This document shows, piece after piece, positions 11,050 to 63,868 of a stretch of DNA of 64,000 nt. The notes below the pieces were generated by a model that worked only from the letters and a program-made list of their open reading frames with translations, was not told the origin of the DNA and made no database searches. The stretch comes from Ruminococcaceae bacterium UBA3753. GTDB taxonomy: Bacteria > Bacillota > Clostridia > Oscillospirales > Acutalibacteraceae. The DNA is taken from positions 62,394 through 126,393 of the forward strand of contig DFGJ01000021.1 of NCBI GenBank assembly GCA_002372375.1. Direction: 5' to 3'. How positions within the stretch are numbered: position 1 is the first letter of the stretch; every line of letters begins with the position of its first letter. Position numbers and translations under genes: made by a program.

Positions 11050-12010
11050 TTGTTGACTATTTTTTTGCTAAAAGTGGAGGTTGTCCTCTTCTGGGTGTGG
11101 TTGTATCCAAACATAGAGGTTGTTTCTTGTAATGATGTGGCGTTAATGCTCTCTTTTTTGGAATTTTTCAGTTTCTTCGGTTATCTTGAGGAGTTGACAG
11201 TTTTTGTCAAAGACGGACACTGTTGTCTGCGCGGTGTTGGAGCTATTTTTTGAAATGATGCGACATTAATATTCTTGCTTGGAGAATTTTTTGGTTTCCT
11301 CAGTTGTTTTTTTGTGTTGAGGTTTTTTTGTTAAAGACGGACACTGTTGTTTGCGCGGTGCTGGTTGGAGCTGTTTTTTGAAATGATGTAGCATAAATGT
11401 TCGCGCCTGGAAAATTTTTTGGTTTCCCCAGTTGCTTTTTTGTGTTGAGGTTTTTTTGTTAGGTGTGTGCGCTGCTGGCTGCGGGCTTTTGGTTGCAGCC
11501 AAAAGTTAAAGCTATTTTTTTATAATAGTGTAGCATTGATGTTCTCTTTTTCTGAATTTTTCAGTTTCTTCGGTTATCTTGAGGCGTTGATGTTTTTTGT
11601 TAAAGATGGACACTGTTGTCTGCGCGGTGTTGGAGCTCTTTTTTGAAATGATGTGACATTAATATTCTCGCTTGGAGAATTTTTTGGTTTCCCCAGTTGT
11701 TTTTTGGCGTTGATGTTTTTTGTTAAGGATGGACACTGTTGTCTGCGCGGTGTTGGAGCTGTTTTTTGAAATGATGTGACATTAATATTCTCTCTTGGAA
11801 ATTTTTTTGGTTTCCTCAGTTGTTTTTTTGTGTTGAGGTTTTTTTGTTAGGTGTGTGCGCTACTGGCTGCGGGCTGTTGGTTGCGTCTGGCATAGAAGTC
11901 GTTTCTTGTAATAATGTGGCGTTAGCGCTCTCGTTTGAGGAATTGTTCAGTTTTTTCGGTTGCTTTGAATTGATGTCAATGTTTTTTCTATTGTTCTCAA
12001 GATATAAGAA
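11050..12010 (+). repeat. tandem array of ~123-141 bp monomers in a ~390 bp three-unit higher-order repeat (about 7.5 monomers)
   Basis: Unit boundaries fall after 11120, 11244, 11372, 11513, 11637, 11760 and 11900. Units 11121-11513 and 11514-11900 are colinear and highly similar, unit for unit. Confidence 0.9.
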
Positions 12011-12365: not shown

Positions 12366-12980
12366 ATGTTAAATATGGGCGAGTATGTAGTTGCATCTCT
12401 TAAAAATTTGGTTGAAAAGCTTAAAATGCTTCCAGGCATAGGCGAAAAATCGGCGCAAAGGTTAGCGTATCATATAATAGGTTTACAAAAAAATGAGATA
12501 AAGTCTTTTGTTGATGCTATTTTAGACGCAAAGACCAAGATTCATTTTTGCAGCATTTGTAAAAATTTAACAGACAGTGAAGTTTGCTCTATATGTTCTG
12601 ATGAGAACCGAGATGGTTCTACTATATGTGTTGTGGAGTCCCCTCAAGATGTTGTATCTTTTGAGAAATCCGGTGGATTTAATTTTAGGTATCATGTTTT
12701 GCATGGGGTGATTTCACCTTTGAATGGTGTAGGTCTTTCTGATATTTACATAGATGCACTTATAAAAAGACTTGAGGCTAACGGTGACGTTAAGGAAGTA
12801 ATAATGGCAACAAATCCGACTATGGAAGGTGAGGCTACGGCGCTTTACATAAAAAAATTACTTAAACGCTTTGATATAAAAGTTACGAGACTGGCCTGTG
12901 GAGTTCCCATCGGCGGTGACCTAGAATATACTGATAAGATGACTCTTATACGAGCACTCGAGGGGCGAAGTAGTATGTAA
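12366..12980 (+). CDS. recR: recombination protein RecR
   Basis: LPGIGEKSAQRLAYH (HhH), the C4 zinc finger CSICKNLTDSEVCSIC, and a Toprim region VVESPQDV...ATNPTMEGEATA. Confidence 0.92.
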   Translation: MLNMGEYVVASLKNLVEKLKMLPGIGEKSAQRLAYHIIGLQKNEIKSFVDAILDAKTKIHFCSICKNLTDSEVCSICSDENRDGSTICVVESPQDVVSFEKSGGFNFRYHVLHGVISPLNGVGLSDIYIDALIKRLEANGDVKEVIMATNPTMEGEATALYIKKLLKRFDIKVTRLACGVPIGGDLEYTDKMTLIRALEGRSSM

Positions 12981-15644: not shown

Positions 15645-17003
15645 CTAGCTAATCAGCCCCGGCGAATAATTTATAACACGCCCACTGCATCCAGGACAAC
15701 CGCCCACTCCGTCACTACCCTGAAAAAACCAATAGTTAGGATTATGCTTCGTACCACGGCCTCCTCTTCCGCCTTCTCCAGGAACAAAGGTACAATTTCC
15801 TTTGTTTAAAACTTTTCCGTGATCCGGTTCAACAAAAAAAACATCTGCACCGTTACCTCCCTTGCCACCATCACCTCCGCTTCCTCCCCATAGAAGAAAG
15901 CCAATGGGCGCATAAGCTATCTCGCCACCCTCACCACCGTCAGACGCCTTAGCTACCAAATTTTCTAAAGTCAAACTTCCACTTAAAACTTTAAACAAAG
16001 GTTTACTGCTAATTCCTGCATACCCTTTTCTAGAAAAAACAGGTCCACTACTACTATCGATGAAAGAAGCTTTCGAAGGGGTAAGACCAACTATTTTTCC
16101 TCGTATATCTCTACCATTACTAAAAATTTTCACTTTCACCGTATCGTCGTATTCATAATATGCTTCCTGCACTTTCTCTTCATACGCTGGCACCAAAACA
16201 TCATAATACCTTGTTTGAGAACTACGTTCATTCGAATCACCGCAAATTTCGGTACTTTTTCCACTATCTGTATAAATACTTTCACTTCTTCTCTCAAACC
16301 TTGGTTTGTGATGAACTGTTTTCTCTCTAAATCTTTTATCTTTTCTACCTACAATTATAGATGCATCTGGGAAAATAGACAAAGTGTGCCCATTTAAATC
16401 TAAGTTTGCTCCATCAGGCAATATAAGGTCATTTGTCACACATATATCATCAACCAGTCTAACATTAATTAAACCTTGTTCATCCTTTTTGCCTTTTTCA
16501 AGTGCATCAACCAAATCAGGATAAGTAGCTACCTTAACATAACTATTCTTATCACAAAAATTCCTCGAATAATCTGTGCCAATACTCTGATCAACACAAG
16601 AATCTACGTTATATACCACGTTGTTATAGTCATTTCTTTTACAAGAACCGCGAGGATAATCTGCACTACTTGACCAATCCATACATGAATTTACATTACG
16701 TACTGAATCGTTATAGTCATTTCTTCTACAAGAACCGCTAGAATAATCTACACTGCTGGACCGATCCACACATGAATTTACATTATGTACTGAATCGTTA
16801 TAGTCGCTTCTCCCACAAAAGTCGCGAGAATAAGCTGCATTGCTGCTGGACTGATTAACACAAGAACTTGCGTTACGTACTGCATCGTTATAGTTATTTC
16901 TTCTACAAGAACCGCGTGAATAATCTGCGCCAACGCCAATACATGAACTTTCCAGAGCAGCGGTAAAGAATGGTATAACAAACAATTTAAAGCCTGCCTT
17001 CAT
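15645..17003 (-). CDS. secreted repeat protein: Cys-pair repeats, a beta-helix-like middle and a Gly-rich tail with RTX-like nonamers
   Basis: Signal-peptide-like N-terminus. About 4.5 repeats of ~29 aa (DYSxGSCRRNDYNDSVRNVNSCxD). LDLNGHTLSI is typical of parallel beta-helix adhesins. GGSGGDGGK-GGNGADVFF fits the GGxGxDxUx pattern. Confidence 0.6.
   Translation of the reverse strand: MKAGFKLFVIPFFTAALESSCIGVGADYSRGSCRRNNYNDAVRNASSCVNQSSSNAAYSRDFCGRSDYNDSVHNVNSCVDRSSSVDYSSGSCRRNDYNDSVRNVNSCMDWSSSADYPRGSCKRNDYNNVVYNVDSCVDQSIGTDYSRNFCDKNSYVKVATYPDLVDALEKGKKDEQGLINVRLVDDICVTNDLILPDGANLDLNGHTLSIFPDASIIVGRKDKRFREKTVHHKPRFERRSESIYTDSGKSTEICGDSNERSSQTRYYDVLVPAYEEKVQEAYYEYDDTVKVKIFSNGRDIRGKIVGLTPSKASFIDSSSGPVFSRKGYAGISSKPLFKVLSGSLTLENLVAKASDGGEGGEIAYAPIGFLLWGGSGGDGGKGGNGADVFFVEPDHGKVLNKGNCTFVPGEGGRGGRGTKHNPNYWFFQGSDGVGGCPGCSGRVINYSPGLIS
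16541..16925 (-). repeat. intragenic tandem repeat, ~87-90 bp x ~4.5
   Basis: The block cgttatagtcatttcttctacaagaaccgc recurs at about 16622, 16709, 16796 and 16885. Confidence 0.85.
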
Positions 17004-20229: not shown

Positions 20230-21180
20230 AATAGAAGTAAAAACTGTTACAAAATGAGCTGTTGCCTTAGGAATACTTCAAAAAATAAAATAACACAATC
20301 TACGATAAAAGAACCGCTCCCAAAGATTAAAACCGAATATACATTTTATGCCTCTAGTATGTTTATAATTGAACCTTTAAAAAAATAACTTATCTCTATT
20401 TAAGGCGTTTTCAATCTCCAGGATAGTTTTATTACTAGTTTTTGTAAGCTTTTCACTTTTTTAATTTTTATAAGTTTTTTTAAACTTATCCATTTAAAAT
20501 CTTGTGTTTCACTTTTTTTGTAAACTGTGGTGTTGGCTTTATCCCAGTAAAAAGATGCGATTTAGTTATATTTTGTTACAGATACAATATAAGTTGGTGT
20601 ATTTGTTATACAAATATTATTTTAAATAAACACCATAAAAAAGCTTTCATTAAAAATTCACTTACACAAAGATAGATCATGCTCGACCAACTGTATTAAT
20701 GACTGGTACCTTGTTATAAACTAAAGTTTTAACTATGAAACAATATATCATCCACACTAATTTTATCTAAAAAAAATAAATACTAATAAAATATGTAAAT
20801 GGCTTGGCAGAAGCTAATGCATAAAGTAGAAACAAATCTATAACAGTAATTCCTTTTTAAGGAAAATAATTTTGGAATAACTAAATAAAAAAATTTATTT
20901 AAAGGAAAAATGTGCCTGCTGATGCAACTTCAAAATAAAAAGTAGACAGTGTGGACTGTAAGAAACGAAACGTCTGTGTTTCTGTCTGGTGCAGGAAATA
21001 AAACAAACACACTAACTGGCTTTAAGAGTACAAAGATGCTGGGCTGATCTGCTGACCATTAGTTGTTAGTCACGAACCCAAAGCAAATGAAAGACCAAAC
21101 GCTTTCAGAACATGTACTGGCACCAAAAACTCAAGTTAATGCCGCCATAACGTTGAAATTAATGTTGTGCACACAGAACT

Positions 21181-21403
21181 GGATGCACTAATCCTAGATT
21201 TTAGTCACAATCCTACCAAATTTCATCCTGTACAGACTCCTTCACGGATTATTATACATCACACTTATTGTGTAACAGTGCCGAATGGGATACGCTGTCC
21301 AGAAATATTAGCCGTTGCACTTTCCATACAAAATAAAAAGCCCCGCCAAAACAGCGAGGTCGGCTTGGTAATGGGATGCACTAACCTTCTATTTTAGTTA
21401 CAA
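21181..21403 (-). repeat. ghost copy of the tuf 3' end about 193 bp downstream of the real one
   Basis: Plus-strand ggatgcactaaccttctattttagttacaac (21374-) matches ggatgcactaatcctagattttagtcacaatc (21181-). The similarity continues into the gene: ccttcgcggattgc versus ccttcacggattat. Confidence 0.65.
21331..21364 (-). terminator. probable rho-independent terminator of tuf
   Basis: On the minus strand CCUCGC-UGUUUUG-GCGGGG forms a 6-bp stem with one G-U pair, extendable with a bulge. It is followed by CUUUUUAUUUU, about 17 nt after the tuf stop. Confidence 0.55.
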
Positions 21404-22586
21404 CACCAGAACCCACCGTACGCCCACCTTCGCGGATTGCAAACCTCAAACCCTCTTCAATCGCAATCGGAGTTATGAGCTCAACAGACATATCCACATT
21501 ATCACCAGGCATAGCCATTTCTACACCTTCCGGTAAAGTTATTACACCAGTGACATCAGTAGTTCTGAAGTAAAACTGAGGTCTGTAATTATTGAAAAAC
21601 GGAGTATGACGCCCACCCTCATCTTTAGTTAAAATATAAACTTGTCCACTAAACTTAGTATGCGGATTTATCGTCCCCGGTTTCGCTAAAACTTGACCAC
21701 GCTTAATTTCATCTCTCTGGACGCCACGTAAAAGCGCGCCAACATTATCGCCCGCTTCACAATAATCCAAAGTTTTACGGAACATCTCCATACTAGTGAC
21801 CACTACTTTACGCCTTTCGGTAGTGAGACCAACTAGCTCAACCTCATCACCGGCATTAAGTCTTCCTCTCTCTACACGGCCAGTAGCAACTGTACCGCGT
21901 CCCGTAATGGTCATAGTATCTTCAACAGGCATCAAGAAAGGCAAGTCGGACTTGCGCTCCGGCGTCGGAATGTAAGAATCCACAGCATCCATAAGTTCAA
22001 GGATCGGCTTGTACTCTTCAGCAGAAGGATCAGTGGAAGAACTTTCCAAAACCTTCAAAGCAGAACCTTTAATTATCGGCGTGTTATCACCATCAAACTC
22101 ATAGCTGCTTAGAAGCTCACGTACCTCCATTTCCACCAAGTCTAAAAGTTCCGGATCATCTACCTGGTCGACCTTATTCAAAAACACAACTATACTTGGC
22201 ACACCGACCTGCCTAGCAAGTAATATATGTTCACGAGTTTGTGGCATAGGACCGTCAGCTGCTGAAACAACTAAAATCGCTCCATCCATTTGCGCTGCAC
22301 CAGTAATCATATTCTTAACATAATCCGCGTGACCTGGGCAGTCAACGTGCGCATAGTGCCTCGCATCGGTCTGATACTCCACATGGGCAGTATTAATCGT
22401 TATACCACGTTCACGTTCTTCAGGAGCCTTATCAATATTTGCATAGTCAGTAAAATCCGCATACTTCTTAAAACTAAGAACCTTCGTAATTGCTGCAGTA
22501 AGCGTCGTTTTTCCGTGATCCACGTGTCCGATAGTCCCAATATTAACGTGCGGTTTGTTTCTCTCAAATTTCTGCTTTGCCATCAA
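21381..22586 (-). CDS. tuf: elongation factor Tu
   Basis: Unmistakable EF-Tu: [44 protein letters not shown]. The true start is probably the second ATG, at 22583. Confidence 0.97.
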
Positions 22587-24311: not shown

Positions 24312-24950
24312 AAAAAACCCCCTTAAATTGTAATTATTTGTACCGAAAAAATACCGTACCGTTGAAGTTTAAATTAAAACTTTTTAAAGATCCAGTTAAA
24401 ATTTAGTTTTTATGTAGCAATAAGCGAAGTGCAAAACTTCTGCTTTTGTAAGTCAAAATTTTATCTATTTTGCAAATAGAACAAGAAGTAAAACCCTGCA
24501 GTAAAACATATATTTATAAAAACTAACTAAAGCCTCTTCTACGCTCTAAATAATCTTATATATCTAAGACGCAATTGATAATTGACCAACAAAACAAAGA
24601 CCAGACTATAAATTAAGCCCAAATCATTTATATTCTTGTTTTTTATCTTAAAGAAATTAAAACAATAAATCGAAAACGTTCACAATTTCTGAGTTATCTA
24701 TCCCTAAGAAATTCATCGTTGTTAGCTATAATAACATGTTTATATTTATTGCACTGATTAAAATGTTCAGAATGTTCCATGTATGCAGTTAACAAACTTT
24801 TTAGCCTCCCCACTATGATCTACCAATAACGTCCTCAGAGTTGTCCGGAACAAGGTTGTAACCCAAAAACGATAAATTACTCAGTGGTTGTTTTCCAAGT
24901 GCAAAAGCAAAAGACTAAAAGCAGATTATAAGCTGGAGAAGATTGAATAA

Positions 24951-25420
24951 AAGTACGGCAACTTAGAAATTTTAAAGGGGCAATTAGAATCGGTGCTATT
25001 TTACAAAGAAGCCGCATCATTATCTATCAGCTATTTGCACGCTCGATCCTTTCTCTTTCCGCCTGGGGAGGCATTATATAATTTATTTACAAACTTTGAG
25101 CGTCTAAAGTGCGGCAACTTAGAAAATTCAAAAAGACAATTAGAAGTCGGCGCTGCCTTACAAAGAAGCCACATCATTATCTATCAGCTATTTGCACGCT
25201 CAATCCTTTCTCTTTCCGCTTGAGAAGGCCCTATATAATTTATTTACAAACTTTGAGTATCTGAAGTGCGGCAACTTAGAAATTTTAAAGGGGCAATTAG
25301 AATCGGTGCTACCTTACAAGGAAGCCACATCATTGTCTATTAGCTATTTGCACGCTCGATCCTTTCTCTTTCCGCTTGAGAAGGCCTTATATAGTTTATC
25401 TGCAAACTTTGAGCATCTCC
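24951..25420 (-). repeat. tandem array, ~156 bp x 3; the innermost unit contains the last ~26 codons and stop of tsaB
   Basis: Unit starts (aagtRcggcaacttagaaa) are at 24951, 25107 and 25264. The string tatttgcacgctcRatcctttctctttccgc recurs at about 25033, 25190 and 25344, and the tsaB stop is at 25340. Confidence 0.9.
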
Positions 25421-27461: not shown

Positions 27462-27983
27462 ATGGAAGTTTGGGACGCGTATGATTCGTCTTTTAAGTTA
27501 GTCGACGGCGTATATCTGATAAGAGATGAAGTTATACCTGAAGGACTGTATCACCTGGTTTGCCAGGTATTGGTGCAGCATGTGGACGGAACTTATCTTT
27601 TAATGCAAAGAGATAAGGACAAAAGCCAGGGTGGTATGTGGGAAGCGAGCGCCGGTGGCTCAGCTTTGAAAGGAGAAAACGCCAAGGTTGCAGCTAAGCG
27701 CGAACTTTTTGAGGAGACAGGTATAGTTGCTGATAATTTAAAAGAAAAACATAAATACAAATTCCGGAATAGCATATTGGTTGAATTTTTTACAACAATT
27801 TACAGGGATAAAACTAAAATTGCCTTACAAAAAGGTGAAACACAGAATTTTAAATGGGTAAATGCAAAAAAACTGATAGAAATTAAAAAACGTGGAATGC
27901 TTACAAAAACTAGCAATAAAACTATATTAGATATTGAAAACTCCTTAAGTAAAGAAAAATTATTGCCGAATGTTCAAATTTAA
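27462..27983 (+). CDS. NUDIX hydrolase
   Basis: Nudix box GGSALKGENAKVAAKRELFEETGI (GX5EX7REUXEEXGU). Confidence 0.8.
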   Translation: MEVWDAYDSSFKLVDGVYLIRDEVIPEGLYHLVCQVLVQHVDGTYLLMQRDKDKSQGGMWEASAGGSALKGENAKVAAKRELFEETGIVADNLKEKHKYKFRNSILVEFFTTIYRDKTKIALQKGETQNFKWVNAKKLIEIKKRGMLTKTSNKTILDIENSLSKEKLLPNVQI

Positions 27984-28130
27984 ACATATAGAAGTGCAAA
28001 ATGTACTTTTAGTTTCGCTCACCAGGTGCAGTCATCTGCTCTTGGTTTGTTCCTATTTTAGACGCCTTTTCTGTGTATATTTTTCCCGTCAAGACTTAAA
28101 CGGCATAATTATTTCGAATAATACCTAATT

Positions 28131-29734: not shown

Positions 29735-30320
29735 TAGAAGAAGCAAAGGTTGTGTTCTTTAAAAGGATTTGTTAAATAGGTTTTAGCCTTGACTTGTTAT
29801 AGCAGTAAAGAAACCGATTTATATTTTGGCGCGAATAATGATGTTTTCAATTAGATTCCTTCAGCTTTAATATCTAGTACTTATGAATTCAATACAAATG
29901 TACATCTAACGAATAACAAGGGGGGCGGACCGACTAAAAGAAGCAAAAGTTGTACTCCTTAAAAAGGTTTGTTAAATAGGTTTTAGCCTTGACTTGTTAT
30001 AGCAGTACAAGATCCGATTTATTTTTGGCGCGAATAATGGTGTTTTCAATTAGATTCCTTCAGCTTTAATATCTAGTATTTATGAATTCAATACAAATGT
30101 ACATCTAACGAATGACAATTGGCAGATCGACTAAAAGAAGCAAAAGTTGTACTCCTTAAAAGGGTTTGTTAAATAGGTTTTAGCTTTGACTTGTTATAGC
30201 AGCAAAAAAGCTGATTTGTGTTTTGGTGTAAATAGTGACGGGCTTTTGTTTGGATTTCTTCCGCTTTAATATCTAGTATTTAAATATACGTCTAACGAAT
30301 AACGAGGGGACGGATCGACT
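29735..30320 (+). repeat. tandem array, ~197 bp x 3, upstream of the ABC transporter gene
   Basis: The unit-start motif ctaaaagaagcaaaagttgt is at 29934 and 30131, with a diverged form at 29735. The internal block ggttttagccttgacttgttatagcag recurs in each unit. Confidence 0.9.
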
Positions 30321-38338: not shown

Positions 38339-40420
38339 ATGAAAAGACAGGTATCTTTGGAGAAAACAAGAAATATAGGTATTATGGCTCACATAGATGC
38401 CGGAAAAACTACGACGACAGAAAGAATTTTATTTTATACAGGAGTTAACCACAAAATAGGTGAAACCCATGATGGCGCTGCCACCATGGATTGGATGGAG
38501 CAAGAGCAAGAAAGGGGTATAACTATAACTTCAGCGGCGACAACGTGCTTTTGGAAGCAGCATAGAATTAATATCATAGATACACCAGGTCACGTGGATT
38601 TTACCGTTGAGGTTGAAAGGTCTTTGAGAGTTCTGGATGGGTCTGTTACAGTCCTGTGTGCTAAAGGGGGAGTAGAGCCACAGTCGGAGACTGTCTGGCG
38701 TCAAGCTGACCGCTATAAAGTGCCTAGAATGGTCTATGTGAACAAAATGGATGCTGTGGGAGCTGATTTCTATAATGTTATCCAAATGATGAAGGACCGT
38801 CTACGCTGCAACGCTGTTCCGATTCAATTGCCAATAGGTTCGGATGAAACTTTTAGAGGGATCATAGATCTTGTTGAGATGAAGGCATATATATATAATG
38901 ACGATCTAGGTAAGGACATAACTGTTGAGGAGATACCGCAAGAGCTTGAGGACCGATCGGCTGAATATAGGCGAGAACTTTTAGAGCATGTTGCCGAAAT
39001 GGACGATGCTTTGTTCGAGAAATACTTGAATGATGAAGAAATAACACAGGATGAAATAAAGTCAGCTATTAGAAAAGCGACACTTGCCAATAAGATGGTG
39101 CCTGTAACTTGCGGGAGTTCTTACAAAAATAAAGGTGTTCAAAAGCTTTTAGATGCAATAGTCGATTATATGCCTGCACCAACAGATGTTCCGGCTATAA
39201 AAGGGATAAACCCTGAAACTAACGAGGAATGCGAGCGTCACTCTTCGGACTCTGAGCCGTTTTCAGCTCTGGCTTTTAAAATTGCTACTGACCCTTACGT
39301 AGGTAAGCTATGCTTCTTCAGGGTGTACTCTGGATCTATCAGTGCTGGTACTACTGTTTATAACTCAACTAAAAACAGTAAAGAAAGACTTGGCAGAATT
39401 CTTCAAATGCACGCAAATCATCGGCAAGACATAGATACTGTTTACGCTGGTGACATTGCTGCTGCAGTTGGTTTAAAGAATACTACAACTGGCGATACTC
39501 TTTGTGTGGAATCCAATCCAGTAATTTTAGAGTCTATGGAATTTCCTGAGCCTGTTATTAGGGTGGCCATTGAGCCAAAAACAAAGGCTGGCCAAGAAAA
39601 GATGGGCTTGGCACTTGCCAAGCTTGCCGAGGAGGATCCTACGTTTAAGGCTTACACGGATAAAGAGACCGGGCAGACGATAATTGCTGGAATGGGTGAG
39701 TTGCACCTTGAAATTATCGTGGACAGATTACTGAGAGAATTTAAGGTTGAGGCTAATATTGGTGACCCTCAGGTTGCGTACAAAGAGACCATAAGAGAGA
39801 ATGCTGATGTTGAAAGTAAATATGTCCGTCAGTCTGGCGGTAGAGGGCAGTACGGTCATGTGAAAATAAAAATTTCGCCTAACCCGGCCAAAGGCTATGA
39901 GTTCGTTAATTCTATTGTTGGTGGTGCTATTCCTAAAGAATACATTCCTGCTGTGGATGAAGGTATAAAAAGTGCTATGCAGGCTGGTATTTTAGCAGGA
40001 TATCCGGTTGTGGATGTTAAGGTTGAGTTATACTATGGTTCTTTCCACGAAGTCGACTCATCTGAAATGGCGTTTAAAATAGCGGGATCAATGGCTTTTA
40101 AAGATGCGATGAGCAAAGCTGATCCCGTATTGTTGGAGCCCATAATGAAAGTTAGTGTTACCGTTCCGGAAGAATATATGGGGGATGTTATAGGTGACCT
40201 TAATTCTCGCCGTGGCATGATTCAGGGAATGGAAGCCCTTGCTGGTGCACAAAGAATAAATGCAAATGTTCCTCTGTCTGAAATGTTCGGATATGCTACT
40301 GACATGCGTTCTAAAACTCAAGGTAGGGGACAATACACAATGGAGCCAAGTCATTATGCTGAGGTACCGAAATCTGTTTCGGAAGGAATTATATCCTCAA
40401 GAGTTAAGCCGGCGGGATAG
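38339..40420 (+). CDS. fusA: elongation factor G
   Basis: [38 protein letters not shown] and NKMD, with full-length colinearity to EF-G and the end ...SRVKPAG. Confidence 0.97.
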
Positions 40421-41350
40421 GTTGGCCATACCGCTGGCATGCGTTCTAAAATTTAAGATAAGGCGGAAATACGCAACGTAACCGCGTCACTATGTTAGGG
40501 TACTAAATTCTGTTTTGAAAGAATTGTGTCCTTTAAGAGTGGAGTTGACGGGAAATCGGCCGCCAGTTTGTGCTTTCTTTCCAAGACTTAAGATTTGAAG
40601 TATTATGCTATGAAACTGGGTCAATGTGCTGGGGTACCGAGATCTGTTTCGAGAGTAATTTTGTCCTCAAGAGTTAAATCGACGGTAGCGGTTGTCGGCA
40701 TGTGTACTTCCAGTGTTCGTTCTAAAATTTAGGACTGGGGACAATGCGCAATTTAATTGAGTTACTGTGTTGAGGTACTGGGATATGTTTCGGAAGGAAT
40801 TATATTCTCGAGGGTTAAGCCGGCGGAATAGGTTGCCATACCGCTGGCATGCGTTCTAAAATTTAAGATAGGGCGGAAATACGCAACGTAACCGCGTCAC
40901 TATGTTAGGGTACTGAATTTTGTTTTGAGCGAATTGTGTCCTTAAGAGTGGAGTTGACGGGAAATCGGCCGTCAGTTTGTGCTTTCTTTCCAAGACTTAG
41001 GATTTGGAGTATTATGCTATGGAACTGGGTCACTGTGCTGGAGTACCAAAGTCTGTTTCGAGGGGGATTGTGTCCTCAAGAGTTAAGTTGTTGGTAGCAG
41101 TTGCCGACTTGTGTGCCTTCAGCATGCGTTCCAAAACTTAGGACTAGTACGCAATTTAGTTGAGTTACTATGCTGGGGTACCGAAATCTGTTTCGGAATG
41201 AATTATATCTTCAAGAGTTAAATCGACGGTAGCGGTTGTCGGCATGTGTACTTCCAGTGTTCGTTCTAAAATTTAGGACTGGGGACAATACGCAATTTAA
41301 TTGAGTTACTGTGTTGAGGTACTGGGATCTGTTTCGGAAGGAATAACTTG
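40304..41350 (+). repeat. tandem array of ~132-143 bp units (about 8) seeded by the last ~117 nt of fusA, with higher-order re-duplication
   Basis: Unit starts (atgcgttctaaaa and diverged forms) are at 40304, 40439, 40571, 40713, 40848, 40980, 41123 and 41257. Units 2 and 5 are near identical, as are units 4 and 8. Confidence 0.92.
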
Positions 41351-41536
41351 CTAATTTGTATGTGCCTCCAACAGGCGTTTTTGTTAGTCACGGTTATGTT
41401 AATAGTGCACGTTTTTAATTTGAATACAATGTTTTATTTTTGCTCTTTTCGTAGAGCGCTGGGAGATTTATAAATATTTGGGAATTCTTTGCATCATTGT
41501 TTTGCTTTAGTTTTTGTTTTGCTGTAAGGTGTTTTT

Positions 41537-43549: not shown

Positions 43550-44155
43550 TCCCTAGACCACCCCGTGCGCAGTACGATAAACTATAACCCTAGTGTTATA
43601 ACATAAATGAAATATTTTTTGCAAGCATATTGGAGGCTTTAAAATAAAAAACCTATTAGGTTTATTGCGTAATTACAAACAAAAACTTACTTTCACAAAA
43701 AGTGAAAATTTAGAGTCAAAAGTTTTAATTTTTATATCCTATTTCTGGTACGACGCTTAAATTTTCCTTTTTACATAACAAAAAACTTGTTTTAATTTTT
43801 ACATTTTATTTTTTTCAGAAAAACGAATTTTGAAACTCTGCTGATGCCACTCGAATTAAACAAAATAATTAAGTCTTGCTACTTTTTGCCCTCAAACCGT
43901 TTTTTCAATACTTATTTTTTACAACCTACAATTTTACTTATTTCTAGTTCAACGTATTTTCACCATACTGTACAGTCAATGTAACCAAAAAACGTTTTAA
44001 AACAAAATCATTAAGGATAAGCTAAAAAACACACCAAAAATGGACAAAAATATAAAAAGCTACACAAAAAACAATACTACTGATTAAGAATACACATTAC
44101 CCTAAATTTCTTTATACCAAAACCTAAAAATGCACCTTAAACAAAAAAGGTAAAG

Positions 44156-50330: not shown

Positions 50331-51555
50331 AAGTCCCTAACACTTCACTAAAACATTATTTTTAGATAAACTATAAAATTTCAAAAAACACCCGGAAAAA
50401 TCTCAATGGAAACTGAAAAATTTGCACTACAAAAGGGAACTTACGCAGCCCCACAAGAAACGGGATACTACTCCGCAAGAACATCCCAACCTGTATTTTC
50501 AGACATTACCATCCAAAAAGGAAGAAAAAATCGTCAAAAAACGATCGTGATTTACTTTATAAATGTGCAAAAGATCACGCTGAAAACCTCGCCACGAAAG
50601 TCACCCAAAAATTCCGACAGCGTTCAGCACAAAACCTAACCACAGGTACTCCCCTGAAATAATACTACAAATCTAAAAATTAAGTAAACTTCAGAATCCT
50701 AAAAAACTCCAATCTTACTCGCAACTGCTAAATGTCATCACGAACGCTATTTCTTTAAAGGCTACCCCATGCCTAGTAACAAAACTGAAGCAAGCACAAA
50801 ACACGCACGAAATCTAGGTATACTACTAGAAAAAACACACAACCGTTAAAGCCGCCAAAAAACTATTCACGCTAGCTTTAAAAGAGGTAAAAACGCTAAA
50901 TTACTCGACGTATAACATAAAAATGGTCAAAGGTAATAATGAAAATTTTGGCTTTAAAATAGACGGAACAGAAAACTTAGATGCCGCCCGTATTTCGTGC
51001 AAAAGTAACTCACAAGACACGAATTATCTTTTTCAAAAAAGTTTAGATGATATTACACCTCTGAGCGCCAGAAATCTTTATTCGGTTAGAATTACAGCGC
51101 TACCAGTTTTCCCAAAAAATACAATGCGCCAAAAAGCGGCAACCCAACAATTTTACAAGAAACGCTGTACCAAACCGAACAACCAACAAAAATCGCTATT
51201 CCACTGCTAAGAGCACAAAACTAAAAAACATCGAAATTTAATCCTAACAAATACGCCACAACATGAACGTGCAAACAAACAGAACAACCAATTCACCCTC
51301 AGCTAAACGCTTAATGCTGCTCAGTTCCCTGCCTGACATACTTCACGCCGCTGAACCGAAATGCGCCAATTTATCTACATACCCATGTGTGACTTCTGCA
51401 TGGTACCACAGATATAAGGTGTATGTCAACCAAATAAAGAAGTTTTTGATTAATGCATAAAGGTCAAGCTTTATGGAACGTATTCAGTTTTGCTTGAACT
51501 TGTGTAGTATTTAAAATATAATACATATGTTCGGGAAATGCTTGAGGAATACTCC

Positions 51556-60156: not shown

Positions 60157-60204
60157 AGTTATTTTAAAATTAAAATTTGCAAAATTTTTATTACTATGCG
60201 AATT

Positions 60205-60900
60205 ACAAAGTTGTAGACACAAGACATAAGTCCGCACAAAATAAATCAAGCAAATCGAAATATAGTATAAGGGCACACAATTTTTATTTTTGGTGTCCGT
60301 ATAGTTAGCTCCCCCCAAAAAAATTTTGAAAAGTATCGCTGATTAAAACCGCTTTTGACTTTTTAATTGACCAAATTGAGGGTACTTCTTCATTTCTGAT
60401 GTTTTAATCTACAAATCGAATTTTTGAATTATCAAATTATAAATACAAGACATAAGTTCACACAAAATAAGTCAAACAAATCAAAACATAGTACAAAAGT
60501 GCTCTATTTTTATTTTCAGTATCTGTATAGTCAGCCCCCCAAAAAAAATTTTTGAAAAGTATCGCTGTTTCTGACCATTAAAATCGCTTTTGACTTTTTA
60601 ATTGACCAAATTAAGGGTACTTCTTCATTTCCGATGTTTTAATCTACAAATCGAATTTTTGAATTACCAAATTATAAACACAAGACATAAGTCCGCACAA
60701 AATAAATCAAGCAAATCAAAATATAGTATAAAGGCACACCATTTTTATTTTTAGTGCTTGTATAGTTAGCTCCTGAATTTTTGTATAAGTACCACTATTT
60801 TGGCTTATGAAGATAACTTTTAAATTGACCAAAGTTTGGGCACTTTTTTAATTTTTTATATTTTAATCTACATATCTAATTTTTGGATAATTAAACTACA
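60205..60900. repeat. tandem array, ~226-235 bp x 3, between ecfA and the DUF1653 gene
   Basis: acaagacataagt recurs at 60219, 60445 and 60680. The long colinear block ...gcttttgactttttaattgaccaaattRagggtacttcttcatttc appears in each unit. Confidence 0.9.
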
Positions 60901-61822
60901 AACATAGTATATAAATTTGCAGATAGTAAACTAAAAAGATTAGGGGCATACTAAATAAAGAGAGACTACTAATTAACTGCAAAAATGTTTAATAAGCCTG
61001 CTAAACGTTATAATCGCAAGACAGCCCATAAACCCGACTATTCACCACAAATATACAAATATAGCAGATATAATTCTAACGAATACAACATGTATCAGGC
61101 TGCATATTTATCTATTTTTGGGACGAAGCAGTCGTACTTTTGTTAAAATTTTATTAACCAAATATGTTTCTATAACGCACTTTCAAATGAACAATACTGA
61201 TAAAAATCGGTTTGCAGCTTGTCACAAACGTTTTACTAATGTAAAGTACACAAAAGGCCGGTCGATAAAAATACAATGTACTATAAGCAATTTTTAATAA
61301 TGAGCCAACATTTCTCTACACAAATTCTACATATATATTCAAAAGCCATTTGTCTTAAAGCTAAACTTTTTGAACGGCTTTCGTCATTCGACTTAGTTTT
61401 GCTAAATAGCAAAAAACCACAACTTAGCTTTCAACACGATAAAATCTGCAGAAAACGAGAATTCACACGAACCAAATGCGAAAAGTGTCCCTGTGCACAA
61501 ATTCTGAAAACCGTTAGGAGAACCAACACTTCCCGCGAGTGCTATTAGGCACAGAAAGTAACGATTCCACAGCCACTCTTAAACATCAAGATGCAAAATC
61601 AAAACAGTGCAAAACACTTTTCAGAAGGATTTTTAATTAAACATCACGAATTAAATCCGTGTTCCAACCGAAACTGAGTAAAAACATGAGGAAGACGATT
61701 ACCACTCTCTCACCGTAACCAATTGGCAAAATCAGCTTAAATCAAACTCAAGAATCAGCTTTAACTAGGCGAAGGGACTTACACAAACAATACTATACAG
61801 CCATAATTAATAAAAAAGAGTG

Positions 61823-62653: not shown

Positions 62654-63868
62654 TCAAAGTTTAGATCTCATTTTTTCAATTGTTTCGTAAAGGTTGCCCT
62701 TCAGGTGCGTTTTGTCTAAGTACGGTAACAAATTTACTCCATATTTTTTTGCTACAGCCAAAAGCAATCTTTTTTTTGCTCCTTCTGATTTTACTTTGTT
62801 ATCAGCTAAAGTATCAAAAAAACTAAGTTGTTCCATGTATTTTTCAGACAAGTTATATAGCCCAACTCCCAGCAGTCTTACAGGACCTCTTTTTATTTTC
62901 AGCAACATTTTTTTTGCTTCAACATAAATTTTCAAATAATCGTTACTTGATGGAATATTTTTTGAGCGTGTTATGCTTTTCATATCTGCGTACGTTACCT
63001 TAAGAATAACTCCGTTGCCATAGAGACCTAGTCTTTTTGCTCTTTTTTCAACGCAAATTGAAAGCAAAAATAATACATCCTTAAGAAAAGTAACATTATC
63101 CACATCCTGCTGGAAAGTTATTTCTCTGCTGATCGATTTTGCATCTTTAGGTTCATGTGGAATAACTTTTCTTTCGTCTATACCTGACGATAAATTCACA
63201 ATAAATCTACCACTTTTTCCGAGTATATCGATAACTTTCTCACTGTTTTTTCTTACATCACGCACAGTTTTTATTCCATATTTTTTTAATTTTTCAGCTG
63301 TCATTTTTCCAACAGAATAAAGAGTGCGTACATCGCGGTCTATAATCAAATTAACAAAATCTTTTTCCGATGTTATCTCGAAATAACCATCAGGTTTCTT
63401 TTCTTCGCTTGCAATTTTAGCTGCTGACTTCGAATACGCCAATCCCACAGAGCAACTTAAGTTCAGCTCCTGCTTAATTCTTTTTTTTATTTCGAAAGCG
63501 ATTTTGCGTGCTTCATTAAAATCTTTGAAATTATTGGTGATATCCAAAAAAGCCTCGTCTAAGGCAATAGATTCCAAACAATCAGTATATGTACACCAAA
63601 TACTATGCAGTTTATTCGATATTTCTTTGTATTTTTCATAATTAGGGTGCATGTAAATGCCACTTGGACATAACTGGTAGGCCTTTTTTATATTCATTGC
63701 AGAGTGAACGCCGTATTTTCTGGCCTCGTAGCTACAAGTTGAAACAACTCCCCTTTCGCCAGGCAACGCGCCAATTATAAGAGGTTTGCCAGACAAACTC
63801 GGGTTATCCATAACTTCAACGGAGGCGAAAAAAGCATCCATATCTACATGTAGTATTATTCGTTGCAT
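62654..63868 (-). CDS. dinB: DNA polymerase IV (Y-family)
   Basis: ILHVDMDAFFASVE, SLDEAFLD, and the SCSVGLAYSKSAAKIAS motifs of DinB. Confidence 0.9.
   Translation of the reverse strand: MQRIILHVDMDAFFASVEVMDNPSLSGKPLIIGALPGERGVVSTCSYEARKYGVHSAMNIKKAYQLCPSGIYMHPNYEKYKEISNKLHSIWCTYTDCLESIALDEAFLDITNNFKDFNEARKIAFEIKKRIKQELNLSCSVGLAYSKSAAKIASEEKKPDGYFEITSEKDFVNLIIDRDVRTLYSVGKMTAEKLKKYGIKTVRDVRKNSEKVIDILGKSGRFIVNLSSGIDERKVIPHEPKDAKSISREITFQQDVDNVTFLKDVLFLLSICVEKRAKRLGLYGNGVILKVTYADMKSITRSKNIPSSNDYLKIYVEAKKMLLKIKRGPVRLLGVGLYNLSEKYMEQLSFFDTLADNKVKSEGAKKRLLLAVAKKYGVNLLPYLDKTHLKGNLYETIEKMRSKL

Follow-up and report, generated by a model that had tools for sequence, protein, structure and literature searches.

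Anatomy of the fusA array

The window considered here is a stretch of 64,000 nucleotides (nt) from Ruminococcaceae bacterium UBA3753 (assembly GCA_002372375.1, contig DFGJ01000021.1, positions 62,394 to 126,393); window coordinates are used throughout, and statements on this genome cover the 64-kb window and approximately 10 kb more. It contains fusA (38339-40420, + strand), which encodes a full-length elongation factor G (EF-G) of 693 amino acids (aa; TIGR00484, 1209 bits) and is the parent gene of a tandem array that begins inside the gene and extends into the spacer behind it. The gene is flanked by open reading frames (ORFs) of 353 aa upstream and 201 aa downstream, with a uridine phosphorylase gene further downstream, and the spacer to the next gene measures 1116 nt. 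The array (40304-41344) runs head-to-tail on the same strand as the gene and comprises 7.7 units of 131-144 nt, namely the real gene tail (unit 1, u1), six full ghosts of that tail (u2 to u7) and one truncated ghost (u8).

Tandem Repeats Finder (TRF) reported a period of 409 nt present in 2.1 copies between 40355 and 41221 (85% matches, score 1316) and a period of 135 nt present in 5.2 copies between 40625 and 41344 (65% matches), while self-BLAST returned offsets of 135, 270, 411, 545, 679, 820 and 955. A preliminary description of this DNA had spoken of a fusA 3' end reiterated about eight times, and both programs bear this out; the unit starts that it placed are right to within a few nt, including a first unit made of 117 nt of fusA and 18 nt of spacer. 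Local alignments of the ghosts with the gene tail score 58-127, far above the composition-matched shuffles (1000 dinucleotide shuffles: mean approximately 15, maximum 31; z = 21-52), and the fusA-derived unit has no other occurrence within the window outside the array (self-BLAST). The tail of u4 (40785-40830), previously taken for a near-perfect ghost of the EF-G C-terminal codons and stop, indeed reads SEGIIFSRVKPAE*. Coordinates of all units are collected in Table 1.

Coding state and decay of the ghosts

Translation of the seven ghosts revealed in every one of them a CAA to TAA or TAG change at codon 6, together with further stops, indels and frameshifts. Differences between ghosts and gene are spread evenly over the three codon positions (72/70/69). 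The ghosts are non-coding, dead copies of the gene tail. Their decay is dominated by transitions, with a transition to transversion ratio of 54:15 in the biallelic columns of the fusA ghosts and of 24:2 in the ghosts of a second gene-tail array in the window, that of tsaB. With the gene taken as the ancestor, the per-site rates on the sense strand of the fusA ghosts were 0.59 for C>T versus 0.32 for G>A, and 0.35 for A>G versus 0.16 for T>C. This asymmetry would fit decay on the non-template strand during read-through transcription, or on a leading strand, and is no more than suggestive; transcription, a replication-strand bias or a peculiarity of mismatch repair are possible sources of the transition bias and of the approximately two-fold strand asymmetry. 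The array is probably transcribed by read-through from fusA, and the weak terminator-like hairpin directly behind it (41362-41388) is a likely end of that transcript.

Internal history of the array

Pairwise comparison of the units confirmed the closeness of u2 to u5 (95.4% identity) and of u4 to u8 (94.7%) that had been noticed beforehand. The remaining pairs are more distant: approximately 84% for u3 with u6 and for u3 with u7, 83% for u1 with u7 and 79% for u1 with u4. Two units are mosaics with respect to the gene. The tail of u4 is 86-96% identical to the gene tail and its head only 60-73%, and u7 has a 50-nt patch of 90-93% identity in common with u1.

High similarity at the higher-order offsets is equally local. 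At offset 410, identity reaches 86-100% only over approximately 40360-40630 (compared with 40770-41040), falling to 56-73% on the left of this patch and, for the most part, to about 65-83% on its right; at offset 545, it reaches 96-100% only over 40665-40800 (compared with 41210-41344). Taken over its whole length, the 410-nt comparison gives 78-85% identity versus 65% at offset 135, with the tracts of 86-100% distributed in patches. The recent homogenising events are thus patches of 135-270 nt and not whole blocks of 410-545 base pairs (bp). The preliminary description had proposed a recent re-duplication of such a block; the recent near-identity at these offsets stands, but it is confined to the patches, and the rest of the blocks is only 60-80% identical. 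The mosaic structure of u4 is what would be expected from unequal exchange between the gene tail and a truncated terminal unit at their shared ...tctgtttcggaaggaat, an exchange that would also generate the 410-nt higher-order period. Since u2/u5 at 95% and u3/u6 at 84% cannot be of equal age, additional short conversion tracts would be needed.

A homologous array in a sister lineage

When metagenome contigs were scanned with the 201-aa protein encoded downstream, the window's own sequence was the only match. A contig of a sister lineage (ENA ERZ1029116), reached via a 97% homologue of this lineage-specific protein, covers fusA, the array and the gene after it. Window and sister share 96% nucleotide and 98.6% protein identity in fusA, 98% in the downstream gene and 83% in the unique spacer after the array, and the gene tail is 91.9% identical, compared with 96% for the whole of fusA. 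The sister spacer is 574 nt long and contains an array of 3.7 units, consisting of the gene tail (sA), two ghosts (sB and sC) and a truncated ghost (sD). Of these, sC is the orthologue of the u2/u5 type (84.3% to u2) and sD that of the u4/u7/u8 type (82-85%; 84% to u8), truncated at exactly the same base as u8. No orthologue of the ghost sB is present in the window; this ghost is 89.6% identical to the sister's own gene tail, and its reading frame is still open.

On this comparison the array predates the split of the two lineages. Its orthologous ghosts have diverged at the neutral rate of the spacer (84% versus 83% in the unique spacer), and the copy number has changed about two-fold since the split (7.7 versus 3.7 units). 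Judged by sB, new ghosts are still arising from the gene tail, or being overwritten by it. The preliminary description had suggested comparing the same locus in related strains, and such comparison yielded, besides the homologous array of the sister, its absence further out: no fusA-tail ghost was found in the relatives with 94% and 90% EF-G identity. In the 94% relative the stop is directly followed by T-rich sequence with an apparent hairpin, a terminator as judged by eye. By contrast, in the 91% relative a single degenerate ghost, derived from the fusA tail of that species, lies just past the stop in three independent assemblies (contig L098, 8143-8242; also L099 and L100). This ghost carries lineage-specific states of its own gene, which argues either for a separate origin or for gene-to-ghost conversion that keeps the two similar. 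With a ghost in the 91% relative and none in the 94% and 90% relatives, the fusA tail appears to be a recurrent target.

Alternative explanations

Four other explanations of the array were weighed. In the first, it would act as a functional 3' untranslated region (UTR) or regulatory RNA of the fusA transcript, e.g. as a stability element, a series of terminators or insulators, or a sponge for a protein or small RNA (sRNA); a structured 3' UTR had also been among the possibilities raised in the preliminary description. The terminator-like hairpin in u5 (40951-40978), the weak but positionally conserved terminator past the array, the strand-asymmetric substitutions, which suggest that the array is transcribed, and a GC content of the units that stays above the spacer background all speak for such a role. 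Yet the units have no credible consensus structure (RNAalifold -4.85 kcal/mol, covariation term -0.75), and a search of the array against Rfam gave no match at the gathering threshold nor at E<=1. Moreover, orthologous units diverge as fast as unique spacer, the sister lineages differ two-fold in copy number and also in unit content, and the array is absent from the 94% and 90% EF-G relatives, the former of which has its by-eye terminator right after the stop. We therefore regard a function in the transcript as improbable.

In the second explanation the ghosts would be silent cassettes, stored for conversion of the expressed EF-G C-terminus as in the pilS, vls and msp2 systems or in the ntrX duplicate of Ehrlichia ruminantium. 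Exchange between gene tail and ghosts is visible in the u4 tail, the u7 middle and the sister's sB; the gene tail is somewhat more diverged between the sisters than the gene as a whole; and the ntrX case provides a precedent for a partial duplicate able to convert its parent (PMC9937504). However, EF-G is not a variable surface protein but works in the cytoplasm, is essential and is conserved. Its C-terminus is collinear with the orthologues and identical to the closest one through ...EVPKSVSE, followed by a typical basic tail, and comparison with orthologues found none of the ghost-specific changes in the expressed tail. All ghosts in the window carry the codon-6 stop and frameshifts, so that conversion across codon 6 would truncate domain V. 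Where a direction of transfer can be made out, it would be from gene to ghost. The conversion reservoir that the preliminary description had also considered is thus very improbable.

Thirdly, the array could be an artefact of assembly or scaffolding, spurious or of wrong length through mis-joined short reads. The window is a short-read metagenome scaffold, identical to ENA scaffold ERZ28612953 SHIW14-1_SAMN02144231 scaffold_93 (to judge from the names, probably from a sheep-rumen metagenome), and other assemblies break at the fusA array. The position of these breaks nevertheless speaks for the array. Logan k=31 contigs of run SRR5322920 end at window position 40454 and resume at 41299, and the computed non-unique 31-mers at the array start first at 40425 and last at 41298; the breaks thus fall exactly on the edges of the non-unique 31-mers, which means that both variants of each junction are present in the reads. 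Three other arrays of the window behave likewise; Logan contigs break inside the array at 60.2 kb (two runs, at approximately 60688) and inside that at 11.1 kb (at approximately 11190). The fusA array region is free of Ns, and no exact repeat inside it exceeds 79 nt, a length that reads of at least 100 nt can bridge. Finally, the diverged sister lineage, from a different sample and a different assembler, carries a homologous array whose right junction is the same. An assembly artefact is therefore unlikely, and we give it very little credence.

Lastly, there is next to no chance that the array is a mobile or templated element, such as the template/variable repeat pair of a diversity-generating retroelement (DGR), a miniature inverted-repeat transposable element (MITE) or a CRISPR-like array: a repeat of a gene 3' end just downstream of it does superficially resemble a variable-repeat/template-repeat pair, but the mismatches are transition-dominated and not adenine-specific (gene bases at mismatches: A 87, C 77, G 71, T 31), no reverse transcriptase was detected beside fusA (the 353-aa and 201-aa ORFs have no family match), the unit consists of sequence of the gene itself and has no match elsewhere in the window, and no unique spacers separate the repeats. 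Tested as a DGR, a silent-cassette system, a CRISPR array and a structured RNA, the locus has the defining features of none of these.

Origin of the array and its closest precedent

The array is most probably a non-functional minisatellite of fusA pseudogene fragments that arose from a lineage-wide tendency towards short tandem segmental duplication. Neutral slippage or unequal recombination had been one of the possibilities left side by side in the preliminary description, and it is the one supported by the stops and indels of the ghosts, the even distribution of their differences over codon positions, their divergence at the rate of the spacer and the 3.7 versus 7.7 units of the two sisters.

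Judging from the anatomy of unit 1, the founding event would have been a duplication of approximately 135 bp that linked a point lying 18 nt beyond the fusA stop back to codon 655 (ATG CGT TCT...). It may have arisen by slippage or by template switching, with the right breakpoint at the 3' foot of the stop-spanning hairpin (40408-40438). Because the first copy keeps the stop, the essential gene stays intact and the duplication is tolerated. Copy number would then have shifted by slippage or unequal exchange between units, a change in number that is visible in the sister comparison. Tracts of gene conversion or unequal exchange of 135-270 nt would have homogenised patches of the array, as its pattern of identities displays, and the real gene tail may have served as an occasional donor and so given rise to the higher-order periods (410 and 545 nt). 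In the intervals the ghosts decay without constraint, along the transition-dominated and strand-asymmetric course described above. Arrays may abut gene ends because only those duplications survive that spare an intact copy of the gene.

Several observations weigh against this explanation. The GC content of the units (40-46%) is well above that of typical spacers (23-35%), so that the units are either fairly young, or refreshed from the gene, or maintained by something. The long 3' region may have a role in the stability or termination of the fusA mRNA. Within one higher-order period u2/u5 are 95% identical but u3/u6 84%, for which extra conversion events have to be assumed. The copy number in this genome rests on a single short-read scaffold. 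Furthermore, fusA tails are affected in two separate branches of the clade, which hints at a local hotspot and conceivably at a selected benefit.

The preliminary description knew of no annotated feature class for such an array. There is one, since intergenic tandem repeats of variable copy number are a hallmark of E. ruminantium (Collins 2005 and Frutos 2006, summarised in PMC3287509 and PMC10710844). In that species tandem repeats, whose period averages 139 bp, make up 6.3% of the genome (PMC3287509, Table 4), the highest repeat content reported for bacteria as of 2012, compared with 0.38% in E. coli (PMC3287509); its coding ratio is approximately 64%, and expansion and contraction occur at the non-coding repeats (PMC10710844). 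We consider these repeats to be the closest analogue and precedent of the fusA array. As in E. ruminantium, the units have long periods (approximately 90-240 bp) and lie in non-coding DNA, repeats take up a comparable share (5.5% of this window versus 6.3% of the E. ruminantium genome), the coding ratio is similarly low (approximately 61% versus 64%), and copy number varies between close relatives, with slipped-strand mispairing invoked as the mechanism. Most E. ruminantium pseudogenes are reportedly truncated gene fragments associated with repeats, a finding said to go back to work by Collins in 2005. There are also differences: E. ruminantium is an obligate intracellular alphaproteobacterium, whereas the host here is a spore-forming rumen Firmicute (Oscillospirales); its repeats have a mean internal match of about 92%, whereas the units here are much more diverged (65-95% identity); and the copy-number difference described here is one between lineages and not within a single population.

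Other systems share single aspects. The VNTR-141 and VNTR-105 loci (variable-number tandem repeats) of Wolbachia are likewise intergenic tandem arrays, with periods of 105-141 bp and with internal hairpins, there thought to promote slippage, and their copy number ranges from 0.8 to 7.3 among close strains (PMC3287509). Their units, however, are 98-99% identical and do not originate from a neighbouring gene, whereas the fusA units are old, diverged and seeded inside coding sequence. The E. ruminantium ntrX duplicate converts its parent gene and, like the ghosts, is a non-expressed partial copy near that parent, with segmental exchange by gene conversion (PMC9937504). In contrast to the fusA copies, which are tandem, direct and 3'-terminal and for which only gene-to-ghost transfer is suggested, it is a single, inverted copy of a segment near the 5' end, and transfer from duplicate to parent is documented (PMC9937504). 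Higher-order repeat satellites and mitochondrial tandem-duplication/random-loss arrays resemble the array in hierarchical periods (monomers of approximately 135 nt and higher-order repeats of 410/545 nt here), in patchy homogenisation by unequal exchange or conversion and in pseudogene fragments beside an intact gene. They belong, however, to eukaryotic or organellar settings; the fusA array measures a mere 1 kb, and overall identity between its higher-order copies is only approximately 78-85%.

What marks the E. ruminantium type is found here as well, i.e. tandem copies beyond chance, an intact parent with non-coding copies, variable copy number and an array-rich genome of low coding density. 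We assign the array to this known class, as a variable intergenic tandem duplication with pseudogene fragments of a gene end. The novelty lies in the host, a spore-forming Oscillospirales clade of the rumen with an E. ruminantium-like architecture in which the fusA tail has been duplicated repeatedly. Since it has no evident function, the array should not be annotated as a gene, RNA or regulatory element, and ORFs within the ghosts can be ignored. It may serve as a marker that a gut or rumen Firmicute can have a repeat-rich, plastic genome architecture so far deemed a peculiarity of E. ruminantium. Comparisons of sister lineages can date births, losses and conversions of units and thus offer a natural system for studying gene-end duplication and intergenic growth. 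In practical terms, such arrays fragment short-read assemblies of the clade and would make good VNTR loci for strain typing.

Other arrays and genome architecture

The fusA array is not the only one in the window (Table 1). Six long-period arrays together cover 3533 nt, or 5.5% of its length, compared with four arrays and 0.17% in a control set of 907 kb that covers the fusA loci of 80 related Firmicutes. The tsaB array has the same architecture of gene tail plus spacer as the fusA array; its tail segment is single-copy in a sister strain with 98% identity and present as three units in the window. A further 10 kb of this genome, outside the window, contains no array.

Table 1. Units of the fusA array and other repeat features of the window, with coordinates and strand.
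Feature	Coordinates	Strand	Remarks
Unit 1	40304-40438	+	fusA part of 117 nt (final 39 codons, with the TAG stop at 40418-40420), followed by 18 nt of spacer
Palindrome CCGAAATCTGTTTCGG	40367-40382	+	Inside unit 1; read from the sequence
Stop-codon-spanning hairpin GCCGGCGG...CCGCTGGC	40408-40438	+	In unit 1; 3' end coincides with the unit junction
Ghost unit 2, type 2/5	40439-40573	+	In-frame stops at codon 6 and later (translation)
Ghost unit 3, type 3/6	40574-40717	+	144 nt; spacer part longer; tail identical to the u7 tail
Ghost unit 4, mosaic	40718-40848	+	Head of type 4/8; tail gene-like
Ghost unit 5, type 2/5	40849-40982	+	Terminator-like hairpin (40951-40978), then T-rich run
Ghost unit 6, type 3/6	40983-41123	+	Typed by unit identities
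Ghost unit 7, mosaic	41124-41261	+	Middle gene-like (90-93% to 40349-40395); tail of type 3
Ghost unit 8	41262-41344	+	Truncated at ...ggaaggaat, the right end of the array
Weak terminator-like hairpin and T-run	41362-41388	+	Pattern scan; directly 3' of the array; position kept in the sister lineage
Hierarchical intergenic array, ybaB/recR	11098-11961	+	Period 123, higher-order period 392 at 83%; very T-rich on the + strand
Inverted dispersed ghost of the 3' end of a NUDIX hydrolase gene (27799-28005)	20340-20551	-	78% identity; in a spacer 7.4 kb away (self-BLAST)
tsaB array	24950-25418	-	Last 26 codons plus 78 nt of spacer, three times; two ghosts with in-frame stops (TRF, self-BLAST)
Intergenic array in a divergent spacer	29735-30320	+	Period 200 (TRF, self-BLAST)
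Intergenic array	60200-60930	+	Period 226-235; starts 44 nt past ecfA (TRF, self-BLAST)

The window is also spacious. Its coding density is approximately 61%, with a median spacer of approximately 515 nt, which is extraordinary for a Firmicute; 40 related Firmicute loci analysed by the same method have a median coding density of 88% and a minimum of 77%. A relative with 80% TsaB identity (GCA_978018045.1) has the same synteny and GC content and likewise a coding density of 61%. An ungapped periodicity scan of 24 spacers gave strong scores (88-149) only in the five spacers with known arrays, and the spacer at 43550-44155 was marginal (15.5 versus a shuffle maximum of 11.5). The scan neither supports nor excludes the idea that the long spacers hold the remains of decayed arrays. 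In the literature we found no description of a lineage of rumen Clostridia with low coding density.

It is possible, although rather doubtful, that the fusA array is the tip of a lineage-wide genome syndrome, i.e. of an intrinsically raised rate of short tandem duplication in this rumen Oscillospirales clade. Such a syndrome would comprise the coding density of approximately 61%, a load of variable arrays with 90-240-bp periods comparable to that of E. ruminantium, a broken str operon, gene-tail ghosts that keep recurring (those of fusA in two branches, of tsaB and of the NUDIX hydrolase gene) and genes for TLC-type nucleotide transporters in relatives. A peculiarity of replication or repair, polyploidy or a host-cell-associated lifestyle could be the cause of a raised duplication rate. 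If the syndrome is real, duplication itself would build the long spacers of the clade, hairpin-bearing 3' ends of highly expressed genes would be hotspots, and the clade would represent a convergent Firmicute counterpart of the "genome size plasticity" of E. ruminantium.

The architecture at first suggested a Rickettsiales origin, but this was rejected, since EF-G assigns the window to Oscillospirales. As to lifestyle, a classic reduced endosymbiont was considered and rejected, since SpoIIE, sporulation-type sigma factors, MreB and a PASTA kinase are encoded. The TLC family (PF03219, ATP/ADP translocase) is known mainly from obligate intracellular bacteria and plastids and is odd in spore-forming Clostridia; genes of this family lie beside rpsL in two relatives (contig L096, 1-132, and a contig of GCA_016648615.1). 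As to the str operon, fusA adjoins neither rpsL-rpsG nor tuf in the window, where tuf (21381-22586, - strand) lies 16 kb off, downstream of a GH3 gene, while in relatives (L096, L098, L101) rpsL-rpsG precede fusA, with spacers of 0.4-3.1 kb between them.

A Y-family DNA polymerase (IMS/DinB type; 62654-63868, - strand), RecR (12366-12980, + strand) and RecO (contig L088, 3083-3850) are encoded, so that the organism has at least part of the machinery for recombination and translesion synthesis. Tandem repetition also occurs within a coding sequence, where in-frame repeats of 87 nt (29 aa) at 16587-16928 are located close to the N-terminus of a protein of 452 aa without a family match (ORF 15645..17003, - strand). 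No tRNA genes are located in the 64-kb window. Its sole Rfam match is a bacterial small signal recognition particle (SRP) RNA (RF00169, 46 bits) at 51275-51372 on the - strand.

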